DNA of 35,923 bases, taken from positions 1 through 35,923 of the forward strand of contig JBJOKS010000040.1 of assembly GCA_046045965.1 (NCBI GenBank), written 5' to 3'. Source of the stretch: Cyanobacteriota bacterium (GTDB lineage Bacteria > Cyanobacteriota > Cyanobacteriia > Cyanobacteriales > Nostocaceae). The notes under the pieces are model-generated. The model was not told the origin of the DNA. It did not search any database and was given only the letters and a program-made list of their open reading frames with translations. The position numbers and the translations under genes were made by a program. Below, in pieces: positions 1,655-29,506 of the stretch. Position 1 is the stretch's first letter; each line of letters starts with the position of its first letter.

Positions 1655-4600
1655 TTACACATTAGCTATAGAAGTATCTGCTTCTGTTCTGACTACAAAG
1701 GTGAGAACTGTTTCATCTATTCCTTTCAATTCCAAGGGACTACCTTTAGTAATTTCTTCTTCCTGCAAATAATCTGCTACAGCCGCAGAGACTAAAATAG
1801 TACCAGGTATAGCAGCAGCTTGCAACCTAGCAGCAATATTCACACTAGGTCCAATCGCTGTATAATCAGCACGTTCCTCACTACCAAACATTCCCACAAC
1901 TGCTGTACCTTGGTGGATACCACAGCGAAACTGTACACCTTTACGCCCATCAGTTTCAAATATACCCTGTTCTAACCAACGGCGATTTAAATTAACCAGA
2001 GCGCGTTGCATTCCCCTAGCAGTACCGATAGCACGACGCACCTGTTCATTTGGTGTGAGTTCTTCTGGCGCTCCGTACAAGGCTAAGATAGCATCTCCCA
2101 TAAATTTATCGACAGTACCGCCATTGTTAAAAACTACTTTGGTCATAGTTTCTAAATATTCATTCAGCACTTCTGCGACTTTTCGGGATCTGAGGGTATT
2201 GGATAGCTGGGTAAAACCAACAATGTCACTAAACAACACTGTGACTAAGCGCGGTTCTGGCCGCAAATCTAGGGACAAAGTTCCAGACGCTGCTTTCTTG
2301 ACTAAGGCAGATGGCAAAAAGCGTTTGAGTACCGATTCTGTCAGGTAGGTGTTTAATTCCAAGACGCGTTTTTCATTTTCTTTCAAGGCTAAAAGATTCC
2401 TGGCTTCTGCTAAAAGTTCCCGGTCATTAAATGGTTTAGCTAAATAAGCATCAGCACCATGTTCTGTTCCTTCAATGCGAGTTTCTTCATCAGCCTTTGC
2501 TGTGAGAAGAATCAAGGGTATACCTCGCATTAGCTCATCACTGCGGATCATCTGAATCATTTCTAGTCCTGTGACTAAGGGCATCATTAAGTCAGTGATG
2601 ATGAGGCTGGGAAGAATTTCTCGTGCCAAATTATATCCTTCGTAACCATTACGAGCAGTAGCTACTTGATAGCCGCTGTGACGCAGAATCTCGGCTACAT
2701 AGGATCGCATATCTCGGTTGTCGTCTACGACTAAGATTAATTGCTCAGTAGATGGGTGAGTATGAACTTGTCCGTTAGAGTCTACAATTTGTAAATTTGG
2801 TGACACATCTCTGGTAATAAATTCTCTGTTGTCAGATGCTGATTCTACCTGTTCTAAATCCGCTAATTCTACACTGGCGCGGTTGAGATTTAATTCACAG
2901 GGTGTATCTAGTACCTGTTCTGGAGGTAGGTGATCTGCTCCAGTCAACAGGCGGATGTTAAATTGAGTCCCTTGTCCATAAACTGATTGGACTGTGACTT
3001 CGCCTCCGTGCAGTTCTACTAATTCTTTAACCAGGGATAAACCTAATCCACTACCTTCATAGGAGCGGTTTTCTGAGCCTTCAGCCTGACGAAAGCGTTC
3101 AAATAGGTGAGGAATTTGTTCTGGAAGAATACCAATTCCTGTATCTTGGATTTGCAAGATGCAGCCATTACCGTCATTGAACAATCTGACAATGATTTTA
3201 CCTCCATCGGGAGTAAATTTCATAGCATTTGATAACAGGTTGTAAAGTACCTTGTCAAATTTTTCTATATCCAGGTAGACTGTCGGACATTCAAACAAAT
3301 CCGTAGTCACTCTCAGCCCCTTTTTCTCACAGTAGAGGCGAAATGAATCGACAATTTGGTTAACAAATTCGACGAGATCGCAAGGGCGGAAACTAGGCTG
3401 CATTCTGCCAGCGTCTAGGCGTTGTAAATCTAGTAGTTGATTTACCAGTCGTAGGAGACGGCGAGAATTGCGGAGGGCGATCGCACATTGGGCGTGGGAT
3501 AATCCTTCACCTATTTCCACTGCTGACTCTAATGGTCCTTGAATCAAGGTGATAGGTGTCCGAAATTCATGGGAGATATTTTGGAAAAATTCGGTTTTTT
3601 GTCGATCTAGCTGGATTAATCGTTCTGCTTGTTCACGGGTTGTTTGATATAAACGTGATTGTTGGACGGCGATCGCTGCTTGTGCTGCTACTGCTTTAGC
3701 CAGTTCAATTTCTGATGGTAGCCACTTACGGATTTTATCACCTTCTCTTAGGGTGATACTACCGATACATTGGCCATCAATTAGTAGGGGAACGACCATG
3801 AGCGATCGCGGTCGCATTTTCAACGGTAAATCAAAAGCCTGGACATCTGCGGGCGAGTGAGTAATATCCGTAATTACCACCGGCTCTTTTGTCTTTAATA
3901 TTTCTTTTAAAATCGGATTTTTCTGGATCGGGGCTTGGGAACTAGATAAATGCTGAGTTAAAGCACGCCTATTCCTACCCAGGCTATTTTGTGAGAAAGT
4001 ATCCAAATGTTTAGAACTGTCATACAAACCTACACATTGGACATATTCATCTTCCTGAGTCCATAAAGACAGAACACAGCCATCTACTTGTAAAGCTTGT
4101 CCTAATCGTTGGGTTATAGCTGCAAATATATCTTGTGGGTCTAGACTAGAACGAATTTCCCTAGTTATTGTATTTATTAAAGCTTCCCTTTTTGCTAAAG
4201 CTTCTACTTGCTCATAAGCATAGGCTTGAGACAAAGCCAGAGCCGCCTGATCAGCGACAATTGATACCAGCTGTACCTCTTCTTCTTCCCATACACGTCC
4301 TTGGTTGCACTGGTGCAAGGCTAACACCGCTCTTAATTCTTGTTGACAAATCAGTGGCACAATTAAACTAGAGCAGATATTAGCATCATTAAAAGCCGCA
4401 GCACGTTCTTCATCACCTTGGATGCGATTATCACCTGCTACATTGGAAATTACCTGCACTTCGCCAATTTCCCACACCGTCTGAGCTAAAAGAGGTAATG
4501 GGGTGATAGAGTCAATATTCTCTGGGGATGAATTTTCTTTACCTTCAGATATTCGGGGCAAAGAAGAATTATTTTTCCCCTCAGCCCATGTCTGTTGCCC

Positions 4601-22287: not shown

Positions 22288-22458
22288 GCTGATTTTTGCC
22301 AAGTGAACTTTTACAAAATAATATTTCTATCTTGGCAAAAATTTGGACATTTGTTTGTATCCCTTGGCAAAATGGCGGCAAATTATTTGGCAAAAGGAAC
22401 TTACACAGGTAATAGGTAACGGTAAACGGATAACTGAGAAAATTTTTTCTCCAGAGTC

Positions 22459-22487
22459 TTGACATCTGAAAATACAGATACTACATT
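22459..22487 (+). promoter_or_regulatory. Sigma70-type promoter for the tRNA-like RNA array
   Basis: TTGACA (22459-22464), 17-bp spacer, TACATT (22482-22487); 40 bp upstream of unit 1. Confidence 0.75.
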
Positions 22488-22527
22488 AATAATACAAGCG
22501 ACATTCCCAAAGGAGTTAGCTTTCAAC

Positions 22528-22663
22528 GTAGCGGATAGCTCAAATGCTAGAGCGCCCACCTTGCCTTTTTAGGCCGACCTATCGAGGGTTATCGTAATCT
22601 TGTAAATTAAAATACCCTTGGTTAAAATCCCGGAGATGTAGGCTAAATTCCTGCTCCGCTACA
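22528..22663 (+). ncRNA. tRNA-like / putative permuted Y RNA, unit 1 (degenerate D and T loops)
   Basis: Acceptor GTAGCGGA/TCCGCTAC, D arm GCTC-AAATGCTA-GAGC, T arm GTAGG-CTAAATT-CCTGC, conserved module at 22560-22594. Confidence 0.7.
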
Positions 22664-22743
22664 CTCAAAACAATTTTAGATTTTGGATTTTGGATTTTGG
22701 ATTTGCAATAATGTTTTCTAAACTCTAACTTTTGACTTTTTCT

Positions 22744-22881
22744 GCGGGGATAGCTCAGTTTGGTAGAGCATTGAAAGGGGTAAAACCCATAGTCCTTGAT
22801 TAATAAACTTGCCTGAAAAGGCCGACTAATTGAGGGTTATCGTCAATTCATTGGTCATAGGTTCAATTCCTATTCCCCGCG
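22744..22881 (+). ncRNA. tRNA-like / putative permuted Y RNA, unit 2
   Basis: Acceptor GCGGGGA/TCCCCGC, D arm GCTC-AGTTTGGTA-GAGC, T arm ATAGG-TTCAATT-CCTAT; module at 22808-22842 in place of the anticodon loop. Confidence 0.82.
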
Positions 22882-22967
22882 CAAAAAAAAATTTAGATTT
22901 TAGATTTTAGATTTTGGATTAAAAACTTTAATTTCTAAAATCTTACTTTTGACTTTTGAATTGTTAT

Positions 22968-23105
22968 GTAGTGGGTGGCGAAACTGGTAAACGCACCAGA
23001 TTAAATCCTTAATTTATCAACTTGTCTGAAAAGGCCGAAAAGTTGAGGGTTATCGGGTTCTGGCGATGAAAATCTTGTAGGTTCAATTCCTACCCCACTA
23101 CACCA
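22968..23105 (+). ncRNA. tRNA-like / putative permuted Y RNA, unit 3 (Leu-like class II body, encoded CCA)
   Basis: Acceptor GTAGTGGG/CCCACTAC plus A-CCA, D arm GCG-AAACTGGTAAA-CGC, anticodon stem CCAGA/TCTGG, variable arm GAT-GAAA-ATC, T arm GTAGG-TTCAATT-CCTAC, module at 23021-23055. Confidence 0.85.
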
Positions 23106-23136
23106 AACCCATAATTTTGACTTTTGACTTTTGCTT

Positions 23137-23261
23137 GTGGCAGGTAGTTCAATGGTAGAACGCTATTATCCTTATTCACACCTTGCCTTTTAGGCCGAAG
23201 AATTGAGGGTTATCGTCTGATAAACGAGAGGTTGCGGGTTCAAATCCCGCTCTGCCACCCA
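23137..23261 (+). ncRNA. tRNA-like / putative permuted Y RNA, unit 4 (encoded CCA)
   Basis: Acceptor GTGGCAGG/TCTGCCAC plus CCA, D arm GTTC-AATGGTA-GAAC, T arm GCGGG-TTCAAAT-CCCGC, module at 23182-23215. Confidence 0.82.
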
Positions 23262-23333
23262 ATTAATTTTTGATTTTGGATCTTAGATTTGAAACAAGGT
23301 AATTGATGATTGAAATCAGGTAAATAAGTAGAT

Positions 23334-24299
23334 TTAGCTAAACCAAACTAGCCAAAGAGGGAGTGCTAAAAATAACCCCACAAAAGTCAAAGCAATACTA
23401 CTAGATAACAAATCCCGATCCAAATCATAAACTTCCGCCAAAATCAGTACAGAAAGCCCTGTAGGTGTGCCAGACATCAGCACCAGCACTAAACGCTGTT
23501 CCCCTATTATACCTAAATAGGTTGCTCCTAATCCTACCAGCAAAGGTACAATTAAGACTTTAACCGCGCTGGCAATTGAAGCGATCGCTAAACTTTCCCA
23601 TGATCTCATCTTTCCTAGTCGCAAACCAACCAGTAACAAAGCTAAAGCAATGACTACCCAAACAGCTTGATCTAAACCTGACTCAACTACTGCTGGCAAT
23701 GCAATAAACTGGGTATTTAAACCAATCACAAATGTCCATAGACTGGGAACTGTGACTATATCTCGCAACTGCACCCACCAATGGTTTTCGGTTTCTTTTT
23801 GACCAAAATAACTAGCAATTAAAACCGCAATTCCATAAGTACCGACTACATTAGTAGTCACACTAAACAACACTGCCATACCAGTATTTTCTGGGCTAGT
23901 TAGCACTTGTGTGAGCGTTAGTCCTACGAAACCAGTATTCCCTAAAATTGCTGCCAGAATAAAGCTGCCTAAACTAGCTCTGATGACCGATACTGGCACA
24001 TCTACAGTTTCCAGTTCTGACTGCATTTTGGTAGTTATTAACCATTGCCAAGCCCACCAAGTTAACAGTGCTAAAACTAAACTCAGCAGCAAAACTGCGA
24101 TCGCTATTCCGGGGATAAGTCCACCCTCAGATGAGTTTGTATGACGCGCTAATACTAAAAGTTGTAGAGGAACTCCCACCCAGTAAAGTCCCTGACCTAA
24201 CAACCTAAGAAAAATAACTGCGGTGAAGCGAGATAATACAAGTCCTAAACCTATCCAGATAAATAGAGGTGTGTAGGCATGAAATAAGGTATCAATCAT
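23334..24299 (-). CDS. AEC (auxin efflux carrier / malate permease-like) family transporter
   Basis: About 10 hydrophobic helices with GNTGFVGL, ALLLVGL, KVLIVPLL and PTGLSVLILAEVYDLD motifs. Confidence 0.88.
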   Translation of the reverse strand: MIDTLFHAYTPLFIWIGLGLVLSRFTAVIFLRLLGQGLYWVGVPLQLLVLARHTNSSEGGLIPGIAIAVLLLSLVLALLTWWAWQWLITTKMQSELETVDVPVSVIRASLGSFILAAILGNTGFVGLTLTQVLTSPENTGMAVLFSVTTNVVGTYGIAVLIASYFGQKETENHWWVQLRDIVTVPSLWTFVIGLNTQFIALPAVVESGLDQAVWVVIALALLLVGLRLGKMRSWESLAIASIASAVKVLIVPLLVGLGATYLGIIGEQRLVLVLMSGTPTGLSVLILAEVYDLDRDLLSSSIALTFVGLFLALPLWLVWFS

Positions 24300-24385
24300 G
24301 GGCAGAAAAATTAAAAAAATTAATCTTAGTTAGCAATGTATCAAGTCTGACACAACGTATTAATTTACTTTGTGGAATCTCAAAA

Positions 24386-24405
24386 TTGCCTGAAAAGGCC
24401 GAGGA
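24386..24405 (+). promoter_or_regulatory. Bare copy of the putative Ro-binding hairpin overlapping the Shine-Dalgarno sequence of the Ro gene
   Basis: TTGCCT-GAAA-AGGCCGA (24386-24402) is identical to the unit 2 core; GAGGA at 24401-24405 lies 8 nt before ATG 24414. Confidence 0.7.
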
Positions 24406-24413
24406 AAGAAGCA

Positions 24414-26015
24414 ATGAATTACAACTTCTTTACTAAAAAGAAAACAGCTACACCCCAAAATCAGCCTATTCCCGGACGGGAAGCAGAGATGATCAAAGGA
24501 CGTAGTGGCGGCTATATGTTTGATGCTGGTATTTGGAAAATGCTGCGCCGTTGTTTGTTGATAGGAACAGCACAAAGCACATACTACGCTGGTAAACAAG
24601 AATTAACAGAAGAATTTGCCAAAGTTGTCACCCAAGCAGTTGCCGAAAATCCTGGAAAAGTAGCCGAAGAAATTCTCTATGCTAGTGATGGCCGCGCCAT
24701 AAATAACAGTGCGCCAATTCTAGCATTAGTATTACTTTCAATGGGTGAAACTCCAGAAGCAAAAAAAGCATTTGGTGAAATTTTTCCCCAAGTTGTCCGC
24801 ACAGGTAGCCATTTTTATGAATGGTTGAACTACACCAAATCTTTGCGCGGTTTTGGTAAAGTTATCCGCGAAGCTGGTAAAACTTGGCTATCAAGAGAAG
24901 ATGTCAAAAGTTTGGCTTATCAGCTTTTGAAATATCAACAACGTCAAGGTTTTACTCACCGAGATGCTTTGCGATTATTTCATGTTAAACCACCTACAGA
25001 AAATCACCGTCAATTATTTGAATGGGTGGTTAAAGGTTGGGAAGAATTACCAGCAGAAATACCATCGGATGCGTTAGCGCAGATTTGGTGGTATGAATGG
25101 TTAAAACGCAACCCTAGCGAAACTCATACAGCTATTTCTCAAGGACGCTTAACCCATGAAATGGCTGCACCTGTGGGTAACATGGATAAGCAAGCTTGGA
25201 ATTTATTATTTCAAGAAATGCCTATAGGGGCAATGTTGCGGAATTTAGGTTCTTTGACTCAATTAGAGGTTTTGCGGGCTGATGAAGGCGCGAATTTGCA
25301 GCGTGTGGAAGCAGTTCTCAATAACCAAGAACATCTGCGAAAAGGTCGAATTCATCCTATTGATGTGTTGAAAGCACTCAAAACTTATCAGTCTGGAGGT
25401 AGTTTAGGACGTAGCCAAAAAACTTGGAAACCTGTTTCCCGCATTGTGGACATTTTGGAAAAAGCGGTTGAACTGTCTTTTGAGGTGGTAGAACCGACTG
25501 GTAAAGTGTTTATGCACGCCGTCGATATTTCCGGTTCTATGAGTAGCTGGGTTGCAGATATGGGTTTGAGTTGCTGTGAAATTGCCACGACAATGGCGTT
25601 AGTGACAGCAAAAGCCGAGAAAAATTATGAAATTCGTGGTTTTTCGACTAAGTTTAAAGATTTAGAAATTACTGCGAAGGATAGTTTTAGTTCTGCGGTT
25701 CGTAAAACCAGTAACCAGAATTTTGGGGGAACTGATGCGAGTGTAGCTTATGACTGGATGATTGAGAATAAGTTTAAAGCAGATGTGGTCTGTTTTTGGA
25801 CTGACTCGGAAAGTTGGGCGGGTAATAAACATCCTAGTCAAGCATTGAAGGAGTACCGAAAAAAGGTGAATCCTGATGTGAAGGCGGTTTATGTGACTTT
25901 AACACCTTACCGGATTTCTTTGGTAGATCCTCAAGATCCTTTATCTTGGGATTTTGCGGGGTTTGATCCGAGTATTCCTCGCATTATTCAGATGTTAGCT
26001 AATGACGATTTGTAA
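24414..26015 (+). CDS. rsr: Ro60-related RNA-binding protein (TROVE + vWA domains)
   Basis: LRRCLLIGT..STYY, YQLLKYQQRQGFTHRDALRLFH, MPIGAMLRNLGSLT, RIHPIDVLKALKTYQSG, MIDAS DISGS, GGTDAS, WTDSESW and AGFD; the ATG at 24414 has an SD and is preferred over the GTG at 24372. Confidence 0.95.
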   Translation: MNYNFFTKKKTATPQNQPIPGREAEMIKGRSGGYMFDAGIWKMLRRCLLIGTAQSTYYAGKQELTEEFAKVVTQAVAENPGKVAEEILYASDGRAINNSAPILALVLLSMGETPEAKKAFGEIFPQVVRTGSHFYEWLNYTKSLRGFGKVIREAGKTWLSREDVKSLAYQLLKYQQRQGFTHRDALRLFHVKPPTENHRQLFEWVVKGWEELPAEIPSDALAQIWWYEWLKRNPSETHTAISQGRLTHEMAAPVGNMDKQAWNLLFQEMPIGAMLRNLGSLTQLEVLRADEGANLQRVEAVLNNQEHLRKGRIHPIDVLKALKTYQSGGSLGRSQKTWKPVSRIVDILEKAVELSFEVVEPTGKVFMHAVDISGSMSSWVADMGLSCCEIATTMALVTAKAEKNYEIRGFSTKFKDLEITAKDSFSSAVRKTSNQNFGGTDASVAYDWMIENKFKADVVCFWTDSESWAGNKHPSQALKEYRKKVNPDVKAVYVTLTPYRISLVDPQDPLSWDFAGFDPSIPRIIQMLANDDL

Positions 26016-26072: not shown

Positions 26073-26176
26073 GGCGGGTTTCCCTTATTCGCAACTTGCC
26101 TTTTTAGGCCGATGAATTTAGGGTTATCGGATGAAGTCTCGAAAGAGATTAGCGGGTTCAAATCCCGCACCCGCCG
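26073..26176 (+). ncRNA. tRNA-like / putative permuted Y RNA, unit 5 (no D arm), downstream of rsr
   Basis: Acceptor GGCGGGT/ACCCGCC, module at 26095-26129, extra arm GTCTC-GAAA-GAGAT, T arm GCGGG-TTCAAAT-CCCGC, followed by a T run. Confidence 0.8.
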
Positions 26177-26246: not shown

Positions 26247-27017
26247 TTAAATTGTATCGGGATCAATATTTAATTCCCGCAATTTTGCTGCTAAACGTTC
26301 TGCTTTTTTAGCTTCACGTTCTGCTTTTTTAGCTTCACGTTCTGCTCTTTCTGCTTCATGTTCTGCTTTTGCTGCTTCATGTTTTGCTCTTTGTGCTTCA
26401 TGTTCTGCGCTTTCTTCTGGTGTAGGTACTAGTTCTCCTTGTGCTGTGAAATAACGTAATAACCCATCATAAATTCCTAAATATAAACCCAGTTGCTTAC
26501 TCCATAAATGTCCTTTTTCATGTACTTGTAGGGGTTGATATTCTCCATCTATTAAATGAAAACCTGCAAATTCTAAAGTATAGGGATCAAACCAAAAATA
26601 GTCGGGTGTACGGAATTTATTTTGATAAAGTTCTTTTTTTAATCCTCTATCACTTTTCGCTGTTGTTGGTGAAAGAATTTCCACTATTACATGAGGGTAT
26701 TGTCCGTCTTCTTCCCACACTACCCAACTTTTACGGGTTTTTCTGTCAGTTCCTAAAACTACAAAAAAATCTGGTCCTCGATAATCTTCTGATTTTTTCT
26801 GATTAGGACTATAATAAATACTCAGATTTCCCGCAGCATAGAAATCTGTTCTATCTTTCCATAACCATTCTAAACATTTTAAGAGCAAGATAATTTGTCG
26901 TAAATGTAGTTCTGTTTCCACTGGTGGTTCATCACTATATAAGTCACTGGGAGGAAAAATGATCTCTTCATCTTCAGAGATACTTTTTTCTGCTGTTATT
27001 TCTTGAGTAATCATCAT
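26247..27017 (-). CDS. Uma2 (DUF820) family PD-(D/E)XK endonuclease-like protein with a coiled-coil repeat tail
   Basis: SDEPPVETELH, GPDFFVV, SWVVWEED, IVEILSPTT, YFWFDP, (AEREAKK)n tail and LRELNIDPD. Confidence 0.93.
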   Translation of the reverse strand: MMITQEITAEKSISEDEEIIFPPSDLYSDEPPVETELHLRQIILLLKCLEWLWKDRTDFYAAGNLSIYYSPNQKKSEDYRGPDFFVVLGTDRKTRKSWVVWEEDGQYPHVIVEILSPTTAKSDRGLKKELYQNKFRTPDYFWFDPYTLEFAGFHLIDGEYQPLQVHEKGHLWSKQLGLYLGIYDGLLRYFTAQGELVPTPEESAEHEAQRAKHEAAKAEHEAERAEREAKKAEREAKKAERLAAKLRELNIDPDTI

Positions 27018-27178: not shown

Positions 27179-29506
27179 TCAATAATCTCCTGACCAATGT
27201 GAAGTAGGAGCATCAGCATCAACTACAGATAAATCATTGAGGGAATAGTCTTTTTCTGAACTCAAAGTTACATCTTGAGGAGTTGGTAATTTATCCAGTG
27301 CTTCTAAAACCTCAAATGCTGATTTATATCGCTTTTTATAATCATCCAAAACCATTTTTTTAATAATGTCGGCTAAAGCATCGCTGACAGTTGCTTTATC
27401 AACCCATTTCACTTCTTCATCACTGTCTCTTTCTAACTCATGGGGAGAAATACCAGTTAAGGCTTTAATACCAATCATCCCTATAGCATAAATATCACTA
27501 TTATATCGAGGACGACCAAAACATTGCTCGTTAGGTGCGTAACCTTTTGTACCAATACCAATAGTAAAAGCGGTTGATTCCAGATTATCCATGATTTGGG
27601 TGCTAACTTCTTTAACAGCACCAAAGTCAATTAATACCAGTTTCCAATCTGAATGACGACGGATGATATTACCAGGTTTAATATCTCGATGAATTACACC
27701 ATTTTCATGGACAAATCTTAATATTTTTAATAGTTCTTTTAACAGTTCAATTACTAAAGTCTCGCTGATAGATTTACCTGAGATTAATTCTTTACTCAGC
27801 GGATGACCCAGGATATATTCTTGTACTAAATAAAATTCTTCATCTTCTTCAAAATAAGCTAAAAGTTGAGGAATTTGGGAATGGTTTCCTAGTTTTTCTA
27901 GAGTTTTTGCTTCTGCACTAAATAAACGCCTAGCAAGTGCTAAACTCTCTGGTTTAGTAGTGGCTGGTTTTAGTTGTTTGACAACACATTGTGGTTGATC
28001 TGGACGTTGTATATCTTCAGCAATATAGGTTTCACTAAATCCACCAGCACCAAGAACTTTGACAATTTTGTAGCGTCCACTCAGGATTTTACCATTCAAT
28101 TCTAAATCTCTTTGTTGAATTAGGTCTTGTAGGTCTTCTTGTTGGCTGATAATTTCTTGAACAACAGCAGAAGATTTATGTTTTTGAAATATCAGTAATA
28201 ATTTTTGTTTGTTGATTTTTTCCCTAGCTATGTCTGTACCTAAATAAGATAAACCAGTGAGAGCGATCGCTATCATTGGGACTGTAGTTGGGAACATCAA
28301 ATGACCATAAATGAAGCTACTATAACTGATTATTCCCCACACACTAGCTAAAGCGATACTTAAGAAAAATCTATGGATACCCTGTTTTTTTCTGGTGATG
28401 ATCACGGCCGTACCGCTAACTAGCATCAGCACAAATAAACCCCGCCATACAGGATTTTTGATGGCTGTAGCGATAGATTTATTTGTCATCAAAGTAGCGA
28501 TCGCATTAGCATGAATTTCTACTCCGGCCATACGTTCATTGGGAGAAATAGCCACCTGATGAAAATCATTGCTTAATTTTGCTGTAGCACCAACGAGAAC
28601 AATTTTATTTTGGAAAAACCTACCTTGCTGCAAAGCATTGTTCCAGTTTGCTGGGTCAAACACATCCAAAATAGGAATTGTCTTAAATGTCTCTCCAGGT
28701 CCCCAAAAATAAATGCGATCGCCTTGAGGTTGAGGATAATTTATTTGTGCTGCTGCTAACACCGCTTCTCCAAAGGAGGGTATTTTAGTGTTGAGAGCAT
28801 TGTTTTGAGATATGGAGTTCAAAAATTTACTACTCAAGCGGTGAATTTTACCATCTACCTCTAGTGCAAAATTTACTGCACCGATGGAAACAGACTCAGA
28901 ACGCAAGCTTTGATGCGGCTCTGTTAGTTGGCGAAATGATCCATGACGAGTTGTAAAATTTTCATAGACTGCGGCCAAGGTAACTTTACTGCCATATTTT
29001 TGTAACACTTCCTGTAATTGGCGATCATCAGCCTCACTGTAGGTACTTGGCTGATCAAAAACCACATCTAAAGCCACTGAACGCGCACCAGCTTCTACCA
29101 ACTTGGTGATCAGTTGAGCATAGGCCGCACGTTTATACGGAAAAGGTTTTAGTGGTTGTAAGTAGCTGTACTGTTGAGAATCGGTCGTATAATACTGTTC
29201 AGGAATTGATATAGACTGATCATCAATTGCCAAAATTACAATATCTTCTGGAGCCACCTTTGACCCACGAATTTGAAAAAAGGCAGTCGCCGCTTGATTT
29301 TCTATCACTTGCACCCTGGTTCCACCAGCAGCACTCAGTAGTCCTGCTACTATGGCCGCAACTCCTGTGAGTAGATGACCCAAGGCCACCATCACTTTAG
29401 GCTTTTGTAAGGATGCTGTTAAATTTCCCTTTGTAAAATTACTTAACTGTTCTTTGGCAGCAGTGAGTGATTTTTTAGTTAAGCTGGATGTAGATTCTTC
29501 TGCCAT
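27179..29506 (-). CDS. CHASE2-domain membrane Ser/Thr protein kinase
   Basis: CHASE2 (IVILAIDD, GARSVALDVVF, MAGVEIHAN), three TM helices, kinase motifs LGAGGFSETY, VVKQL, HRDIKPGN, DFG and GTKGYAPNE. Confidence 0.93.
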   Translation of the reverse strand: MAEESTSSLTKKSLTAAKEQLSNFTKGNLTASLQKPKVMVALGHLLTGVAAIVAGLLSAAGGTRVQVIENQAATAFFQIRGSKVAPEDIVILAIDDQSISIPEQYYTTDSQQYSYLQPLKPFPYKRAAYAQLITKLVEAGARSVALDVVFDQPSTYSEADDRQLQEVLQKYGSKVTLAAVYENFTTRHGSFRQLTEPHQSLRSESVSIGAVNFALEVDGKIHRLSSKFLNSISQNNALNTKIPSFGEAVLAAAQINYPQPQGDRIYFWGPGETFKTIPILDVFDPANWNNALQQGRFFQNKIVLVGATAKLSNDFHQVAISPNERMAGVEIHANAIATLMTNKSIATAIKNPVWRGLFVLMLVSGTAVIITRKKQGIHRFFLSIALASVWGIISYSSFIYGHLMFPTTVPMIAIALTGLSYLGTDIAREKINKQKLLLIFQKHKSSAVVQEIISQQEDLQDLIQQRDLELNGKILSGRYKIVKVLGAGGFSETYIAEDIQRPDQPQCVVKQLKPATTKPESLALARRLFSAEAKTLEKLGNHSQIPQLLAYFEEDEEFYLVQEYILGHPLSKELISGKSISETLVIELLKELLKILRFVHENGVIHRDIKPGNIIRRHSDWKLVLIDFGAVKEVSTQIMDNLESTAFTIGIGTKGYAPNEQCFGRPRYNSDIYAIGMIGIKALTGISPHELERDSDEEVKWVDKATVSDALADIIKKMVLDDYKKRYKSAFEVLEALDKLPTPQDVTLSSEKDYSLNDLSVVDADAPTSHWSGDY

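Follow-up and report, generated by a model that had tools for sequence, protein, structure and literature searches.

A hairpin conserved in the leader of cyanobacterial rsr genes resembles the Ro60-binding stem of Y RNAs and may be an autogenous translational operator

Ro60, its orthologue Rsr and their Y RNA partners have been studied from bacteria to human autoimmunity. The Ro60-binding lower stem of Y RNAs is a helix with a single bulged cytidine, and vertebrate Ro60 needs both bulges (PMC4726728). Chen et al. (2014) described GNCGAA(N0-1)G as the likely recognition motif of Rsr, which resembles the GGUCCGA contacted by Xenopus Ro60 (PMC4201824), and single U substitutions in CGAA lower the affinity of a phage Ro60 only 3- to 4-fold (PMC12135203). 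The Ro60 of Thermus phage phiLo binds the RNAs Yrl1 and Yrl2, which come from non-coding sequence ahead of the phage's Ro60 gene (PMC12135203). A second body of work concerns proteins that control their own synthesis: the leaders of ribosomal-protein operons and the thrS operator of Escherichia coli exemplify autogenous translational control by molecular mimicry (PMC8058203). Here we bring these two subjects together in the analysis of 35,923 nt of a Cyanobacteriota bacterium of the Nostocaceae (GenBank assembly GCA_046045965.1, contig JBJOKS010000040.1, positions 1 to 35,923, forward strand), hereafter the window. Its rsr gene is preceded by a short hairpin that copies the Ro-type stem of the Y-like RNA units encoded around the gene and runs into the ribosome-binding site, in a position from which Rsr might control its own translation.

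The leader element of the window is the 17-mer TTGCCTGAAAAGGCCGA, at 24386-24402 of the plus strand, which is followed by GGAAAGAAGCA and then by the ATG at 24414. Its last two bases are the first two of the Shine-Dalgarno-like GAGGA (24401-24405), separated from the ATG by a spacer of 8 nt (24406-24413). The 17-mer is found again, identical in 17/17 bases, at 22809-22825, in the core of the second of the tRNA-shaped Y-like units, and with one mismatch at 23022-23038, in the third. With up to three mismatches allowed, 0.17 matches would be expected, and three or more appeared in none of 100 shuffles. Neither a GGGTTATC block nor a tRNA body lies near the leader, the blocks of the window being placed at -1367, -1207 and +1707 from the ATG. 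The first-pass annotation had thus described the local situation correctly: direct sequence inspection and the repeat search confirm the exact 17-nt match to unit 2, its location away from any tRNA body or block (the nearest lying at -1207 and +1707), and the coincidence of its end with the start of GAGGA, 8 nt before ATG 24414. The 17-mer holds both strands of one helix, UUG-CCU opposite AGG-C-CGA, closed by a GAAA loop (24392-24395) and formed by the pairs U24386:A24402, U24387:G24401, G24388:C24399, two C:G pairs and U24391:A24396, with C24400 bulged; the minimum-energy fold retains only the four inner pairs and the loop, at -5.5 kcal/mol. The leader matches no family in Rfam.

A loose pattern for the hairpin has 12 matches in the 5.29-Mb assembly (92% complete), against about 3.5 expected. 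The form ending in GGCCGA accounts for five of them, all in the rsr locus, namely four Y-like units and the leader; the other seven are looser GGCTG matches elsewhere in the assembly. A wider Rsr regulon was considered and rejected, strict copies of the hairpin outside the rsr locus being zero in this assembly. An intrinsic terminator was rejected as well, since purines come after the hairpin and A and U before it, with no U run, and terminator-like sites are absent from 22300-24600. The promoter consensus scan of the plus strand between 24300 and 24413 returned no promoter-like site, which is a weak negative.

The product of rsr matches over its full length Ro60 of Xenopus laevis (1YVP, E 3e-75), human RO60 and Rsr of Deinococcus radiodurans (2NVO). 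Where does its translation begin? The first-pass annotation had itself raised the possibility of a start at GTG 24372, by which the match to unit 2 would be incidental coding sequence of rsr, and the frame is indeed open from 24372. However, in all 23 orthologous loci that hold a start (the fragment L021, containing the C-terminal part of rsr, was excluded from this comparison) the gene begins at the same aligned codon, M(N/D/S)Y, and therefore GTG 24372 is ruled out. Moreover, the 42 nt upstream of the rsr start correspond in most relatives to a tRNA-like RNA and its trailer. On this comparison rsr translation is predicted to start at ATG 24414, and the chance that the hairpin is simply coding sequence becomes practically negligible.

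The leader hairpin is not a peculiarity of the window. A search of related genomes found rsr in 23 of 61, and a search for related loci added 80 named ones, mostly from Nostoc, the closest being that of Anabaena catenula (96%); together they form a cyanobacterial set of 103 loci, 102 of which are distinct owing to one duplicate. Genome searches with Pfam TROVE at E 1e-8 miss the rsr of the window itself and consequently undercount cyanobacterial rsr genes. The hairpin is present in the leader of all 103 loci, in 28 versions. A strict detector, requiring a stem that begins with G and has at least four pairs, a loop of 3-8 nt, a stem ending in C and then C/U-G-A/G, recognises it in 99 of the 103, the four misses being one-letter variants, with a background of 0.36% of 50-nt windows in this genome. 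The conservation in front of rsr orthologues that the first-pass annotation had proposed to check is therefore found by either count. The hairpin occurs also in L119, which belongs to the same class and has 67% protein identity, in L123 and in plasmid pAQ7 of Picosynechococcus PCC 7002; across at least nine families it is kept while its flanks diverge. The distance from its end to the start codon is 11 nt in 91/103 loci, with a range of 8-14, and a purine-rich, Shine-Dalgarno-like tract follows it in 101/103. In approximately 97 of the 103 loci (89 by a regular-expression count, the remainder by inspection) a tRNA-like unit ends about 10-30 nt upstream of the hairpin, and therefore rsr is probably co-transcribed there with the Y-like array. 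The hairpin is retained in six loci that have no adjacent upstream Y unit (the window, L002, L022, L029, L012 and L019), and Y units lie downstream of rsr in 85/103 related loci.

The same design extends beyond cyanobacteria. By tblastn, Ro genes were found in 368 phage records, six of which were examined; joined to 40 IMG/VR relatives of the Ro of Streptomyces phage SaltySpitoon, they make a viral set of 46 loci that are mutually related and do not represent independent samples, and in 29 of these the layout of G-stem, loop, stem-C and CG(A/G) lies within 50 nt of the start, against a background of 2.8% in the same loci. Ro genes only about 30% identical, in these viral loci and in one locus of Nonomuraea, share the full succession of stem layout, CGA or CGG, purine-rich ribosome site and ATG. 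The letters of the viral stems differ (GCCCU/AGGGC, GCCCA/UGGGC, GCCCC/GGGGC, GCCUU/AGGGC, GCUCGUG/CACGAGC, GCUCAU/AUGAGC), while G...GC-CG(A/G) and the following purine tract are constant, and many phage leaders do carry GCCGAAAGG. For example, the leader of Streptomyces phage Phredrick reads AUGCCCA-AAA-UGGGC-CGAAAGGA...AUG and that of SaltySpitoon AUGCCCU-UAA-AGGGC-CGGAAAGGA...AUG. The phage elements are located in short gaps between coding genes (36 nt in SaltySpitoon), and because of this location they are expected to be internal to the message and not at its 5' end. In the actinomycete Nonomuraea, a 10-mer of the small Y-like RNA encoded upstream is repeated in the leader just before AAAGGA and the ATG, and L111, a TROVE gene of a second type in a Nostocaceae genome, has GCUCU-GGAA-GGAGC-CGA three bases before its ATG. 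All parts of the first-pass proposal that could be addressed by sequence comparison have turned out in its favour, that is conservation, the fixed distance to the start, the choice of ATG 24414 and the presence of the design in distant Ro genes.

A database connection with Y RNAs is provided by L105, a distant genome of the same phylum with a Ro protein approximately 35% identical. Two small RNAs beside its rsr, at 3576-3641 and 3716-3781 of the minus strand, score 37.4 and 31.3 bits with RF01656, the gathering score of which is 38; this eukaryotic model for nematode stem-bulge RNAs and Y homologues therefore nearly recognises the bacterial Y-like RNAs of L105. In the RF01656 alignment of these RNAs, CGGGCCGGAG..UGGGUUAUC pairs with UUUUGCCCG and leaves a bulged C, and both of these strands recur in the rsr leader of Nostoc type, UUGCCC-GCAA-GGGCCGG-GAG. 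From the strands and the bulged C of this alignment, the cyanobacterial Y-like module can therefore be read as a Y stem in which a loop closes the open end and behind which the UUAUC block stands, and the leader as the lower stem alone. The leader sequence allows the helix with a single bulged C that is typical of the lower stem of Y and stem-bulge RNAs.

The pairing of this stem was evaluated in hairpins of equal geometry, given that RNAalifold predicted no pairs on 52 mixed leaders, in which MAFFT had put hairpins of differing geometry out of register; pairs were counted instead within two groups, each uniform in geometry. In the cyanobacterial group, of 29 distinct versions, 97.7% of the cells of a six-pair scheme are paired, and neither the observed pairing score nor the paired share was reached by any of 500 shuffles. 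The closing pair is C:G in 18 versions, U:A in nine and U:G in two, and a G:C pair becomes U:A once, in PCC 7002. UUGCC and GGC-C/U-G are near-invariant over families with proteins that are about 67-98% identical. What is conserved in the element is chiefly its sequence, as would be fitting for a site recognised by a protein. Leaders and Y units have different endings: the Y units almost always end in CCGA, the leaders mostly in CCGG or CUGG, which creates GGAG. Only in the window and in L031 does the leader equal a Y unit of its own locus over all 17 nt, and in 18/101 loci it does so except for the last two bases.

In functional terms, these observations raise a question: What would a copy of the Y-type stem do at the ribosome-binding site of the gene encoding its own binding protein? 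An operator acting by mimicry carries a copy of the principal RNA site in the leader of its own gene, and here the copy agrees with unit 2 in 17/17 bases, the same principle returning in the shared 10-mer of Nonomuraea; the site overlaps or abuts the ribosome-binding site, and here the GA of GAGGA belongs to the 17-mer; and the site is conserved in orthologous leaders, as it is in 103/103 cyanobacterial and 29/46 viral loci. We lean, with slightly better than even confidence, towards the interpretation that the leader hairpin is an autogenous translational operator which mimics Y RNA and is bound by Rsr to block initiation; that Rsr binds its own message through this hairpin is, to judge from the sequence comparisons, likely. 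Free Rsr would bind the mini stem in the rsr leader and thereby occlude the site of the 30S ribosomal subunit, an effect proposed because GCCG(A/G)(A/G)G, the Ro-type motif, continues without a break into the purine-rich Shine-Dalgarno tract. Y-like RNAs, encoded in four to five copies around rsr and having the full site of lower stem and GGGUUAUC upper part, would bind Rsr more tightly and draw it off the leader, with the consequence that the supply of Y-like RNA would limit the rate of Rsr synthesis and match the protein to its RNA partners. It is possible, though we hold this with less than even confidence, that the Ro-binding motif doubles as the ribosome-binding site and that Y RNAs are the anti-repressors setting the dose of Ro60.

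This interpretation needs to be qualified by several observations that weigh against it. The strict CGAA, or GNCGAA(N0-1)G, is not kept: the window has GCCGAGG, hence CGAG, a departure of one letter, and most cyanobacterial leaders have CGGG or UGGG (GCCGGG, GCUGG), their Y units keeping CGA. Missing from the leader are the upper GGGUUAUC part and a defined bulge in the facing strand; a U/A-rich run lies ahead of its stem, and the leaders of relatives showed no conserved sequence with which this run could form a second helix. Covariation is thin, with changes on both sides in two of the six pairs, and a comparable covariation score results when the 3' partners are shifted by +1 (0.253 versus 0.229). 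Rare loops are common to leader and Y units in L041, L044 and L045, and sequence exchange between them therefore contributes to their likeness. The hairpin is absent from the leader of L124, which leaves it in 105 of 106 distinct cyanobacterial loci; the layout is absent from 17 of the 46 viral loci, including those of mycobacteriophages JayJay, Myrna and Sparky and of Vibrio phage BONAISHI; and the strict detector is negative in all six loci of the distant Ro clade L105-L110, where other hairpins, without the Ro-type letters, adjoin the Shine-Dalgarno sequence. As to the first of these points, departures from CGAA need not abolish the predicted binding of Rsr, because single changes in CGAA reduce the affinity of the phage Ro60 only 3- to 4-fold. 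An operator of this kind has to yield to the main ligand, for which a weaker site in the leader would be needed, and the leader-specific ending is maintained despite the exchange of sequence with Y units.

Could the hairpin be independent of Rsr? It might signal RNA processing or stability at the point where the array meets rsr, or serve the ribosome as a standby or spacing device; its likeness to the Y stem would then go back to shared ancestry and to gene conversion between adjacent repeats. The identity of the leader with a Y unit of its own locus, apart from the last two bases, in 18/101 loci and the rare loops shared in L041, L044 and L045 speak for this explanation, as do the modest covariation and the GC-rich hairpins which, in the distant Ro clade (L106, L108), precede the Shine-Dalgarno sequence without Ro-type letters. 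Yet a plain hairpin should vary the letters of its stem freely, whereas UUGCC and GGC-C/U-G are near-invariant, and the letters that stay fixed across the different phage stems are exactly the Ro-type G...GC-CG(A/G). In addition, the hairpin is kept without an adjacent Y unit in six loci, and in phages with a coding gene upstream. We therefore regard a purely structural role as unlikely. That the hairpin is a mere leftover, without function, of a Y-like unit duplicated or truncated ahead of rsr is very improbable: the sequences following the hairpin in L019, GGGCUGAAUGAGGUUAAU, and in L016, GGCCGUAGAAUU, do retain more of the Y module and suggest that the leader descends from a Y unit, but a remnant would hardly be kept in 105/106 cyanobacterial loci of at least nine families while its flanks diverge, nor would it show fixed spacing, compensating changes of the closing pair and a design that recurs in distant lineages.

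The remaining alternative accepts the binding of Rsr to the leader and dispenses with repression. Bound Rsr could shield the message from 5'-to-3' or endonucleolytic decay, seed the assembly of particles on the polycistronic transcript or recruit PNPase; the shielding variant would amount to positive feedback, in the same way that Ro60 stabilises Y RNAs. The likeness to the Ro-binding stem and its conservation apply equally to this possibility, Y RNAs bound by Ro60 are reportedly shielded from exonucleases (PMC4726728), and about 97 of the 103 hairpins lie 10-30 nt behind a tRNA-like 3' end, where processing would create a new 5' end. However, the fixed distance of 11 nt from the start and the overlap with the Shine-Dalgarno sequence are needed for repression and not for protection, a 60-kDa ring sitting on that sequence can hardly leave initiation untouched, and the phage element is internal to operons. 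Binding without repression is thus, in our estimation, quite unlikely, and the translational operator is the interpretation that we carry forward.

In the Y-like units of the window (Table 1) the parts follow the normal order of a tRNA and the Ro module occupies the anticodon position; in units 1-4 this module consists of a hairpin, TTGCCT-loop-AGGCCGA, joined by a short linker to GAGGGTTATCG. An acceptor stem, a T arm and a variable arm are recognisable in unit 5, a D arm not clearly so, and a T run comes after the unit; the upper GGGUUAUC block is present in all five units. The YrlA model of Rfam (RF02553) gives at best 19.6 bits, against a gathering score of 69, in a match that covers the T arm of unit 3 together with the D arm of the next unit, unit 4. 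The promoter-like site ahead of unit 1 is a possible start of the transcript of the array, its weight as evidence being weak given that the scan of the region returned six sites with 5.4 expected. A membrane-transport gene (Pfam Mem_trans, 23334-24299, minus strand) sits between unit 4 and rsr. The last Y unit abuts the rsr leader in most relatives; the window, L002, L022 and L029 have no Y unit within 130 nt upstream of it, and L022 has a similar gene start on the minus strand upstream. Two metatranscriptome runs contain the locus as contigs only, from which start, end and strand are not readable. In run X1, a contig of the RNA library has a tRNA-like 3' end joined directly to 24367, and probably comes from a co-occurring relative in which a Y unit abuts the leader; the loose end at 24382 in run X2 is most simply a unit 2 contig aligned to the shared 17-mer.

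Table 1. Coordinates of the leader element, rsr and associated features in the window
Feature	Position	Strand	Basis
Promoter-like site TTGACA, 17 nt, TACATT, ahead of unit 1	22459..22487	+	consensus scan alone
Y-like unit 1	22528..22666	+	tRNA-shaped; TTGCCT-TTTT-AGGCCGA and GAGGGTTATCG block replacing the anticodon loop
Y-like unit 2	22744..22881	+	Rfam tRNA, 49 bits, 71-nt insert at the anticodon loop; identical 17-mer
Y-like unit 3	22969..23105	+	Rfam tRNA, 40.5 bits; hairpin with one mismatch (TTGTCT...)
Y-like unit 4	23139..23260	+	partial Rfam tRNA match, 27.2 bits; TTGCCT-TTT-AGGCCGA
Leader hairpin, loop-closed copy of Y-RNA-type lower stem	24386..24402	+	sequence, repeat in unit 2, fold
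Shine-Dalgarno-like GAGGA	24401..24405	+	sequence
rsr, Ro60 orthologue, 533 aa	24414..26015	+	Pfam TROVE and vWA_Ro60, structure matches, conserved start
Y-like unit 5, directly after the rsr stop	26074..26176	+	TTGCCT-TTTT-AGGCCGA, AGGGTTATCG block

Other features of these loci may be recorded here. Tandem repeats of GATTTTG/GATTTTA type fill the spacers between the Y-like units of the window (22661-22707, 22885-22925 and 23262-23295). Downstream lie a Uma2-family putative endonuclease (26247-27017, minus strand) and a CHASE2 Ser/Thr kinase (27179-29506, minus strand), and a tRNA-Gly(UCC) is found at 416-486 of the minus strand. In the pAQ7 locus of PCC 7002 (L172), three tRNA-like Y units precede rsr at approximately 1040-1500; their Ro-type strands end in CGC and not in CGA, two of them have A:U where Nostoc has G:C, and a terminator-like hairpin, CCCC-GCAU-GGGG-UUUU, stands between the last unit and the leader hairpin. 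Arrays of some 7 to 14 tRNA genes flank the distant rsr loci L106, L107, L109 and L111 at distances of up to a few kb, and YrlA-like matches of 55.4, 38.4 and 32.4 bits, below the gathering score, occur downstream of rsr in this group.

If the translational operator is real, a conserved self-operator would be a simple answer to how Ro protein and its RNAs stay balanced, and would furnish a ready test system. An RNA quality-control protein would then join the short list of those controlled by mimicry of their own RNA ligand, and it would become clear why GCCG-purine-purine-G flows into the Shine-Dalgarno tract across Ro proteins about 30% identical. Studies of binding and structure would also gain from the leader a natural site of Ro type reduced to its minimum of 17-25 nt. 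For annotation, the hairpin is an aid that marks true rsr start codons and Ro-linked RNAs.

Compared with the lower stem of Y and stem-bulge RNAs (RF01656; 1YVP), the leader shares GG(U/C)CCG(A/G) opposite UUG(A/C)CC and the single bulged C. It differs in that the end holding the RNA termini in Y RNAs is closed by a tetraloop, in having neither upper stem nor UUAUC block nor a defined bulge on the opposite strand, and in its location within an mRNA leader, where it runs into the Shine-Dalgarno sequence. The units of the window resemble YrlA and YrlB (RF02553; Chen et al. 2014) and Yrl1 and Yrl2 of phiLo in being Ro-linked RNAs that carry a CGA(A) motif and adjoin a Ro gene; in contrast to YrlA, they have normal tRNA order and remain below its gathering score (19.6 versus 69 bits). 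Those RNAs are treated as free small RNAs, and a leader element or self-control is not discussed in the accessible parts of the respective papers; in that of the phiLo paper, the strings 'autoregul' and 'mRNA' do not occur (PMC12135203). A full-text literature search returned no description of self-control by Rsr or Ro60 or of this leader element, within the accessible parts of sources including PMC4201824, bioRxiv 10.1101/312249, PMC4726728, PMC12135203 and PMC8058203. A survey published in 2026, which covers the RNA structures of 202 cyanobacterial genomes, in its main text mentions neither TROVE nor Ro60 nor Y RNA, and a listing in its supplement is possible (PMC12873609).

The closest parallels in logic are the leaders of ribosomal-protein operons and thrS, which likewise place a copy of the main ligand in their own leader at the ribosome-binding site, where the main ligand, when made in excess, would compete as proposed for rsr. 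The small hairpin of the coat protein-replicase operator of phage MS2, with a bulged base and at a ribosome-binding site, allows a protein to shut off translation in a comparable manner; unlike the rsr leader, it regulates another gene and does not mimic a separate partner RNA. With respect to the ribosomal-protein and thrS systems, the rsr case differs in that its control is predicted here from sequence, in that the protein is an RNA quality-control ring instead of a ribosomal protein or a synthetase, and in that its competitor RNAs are encoded on the same strand around the gene, with which they are probably co-transcribed in most relatives.

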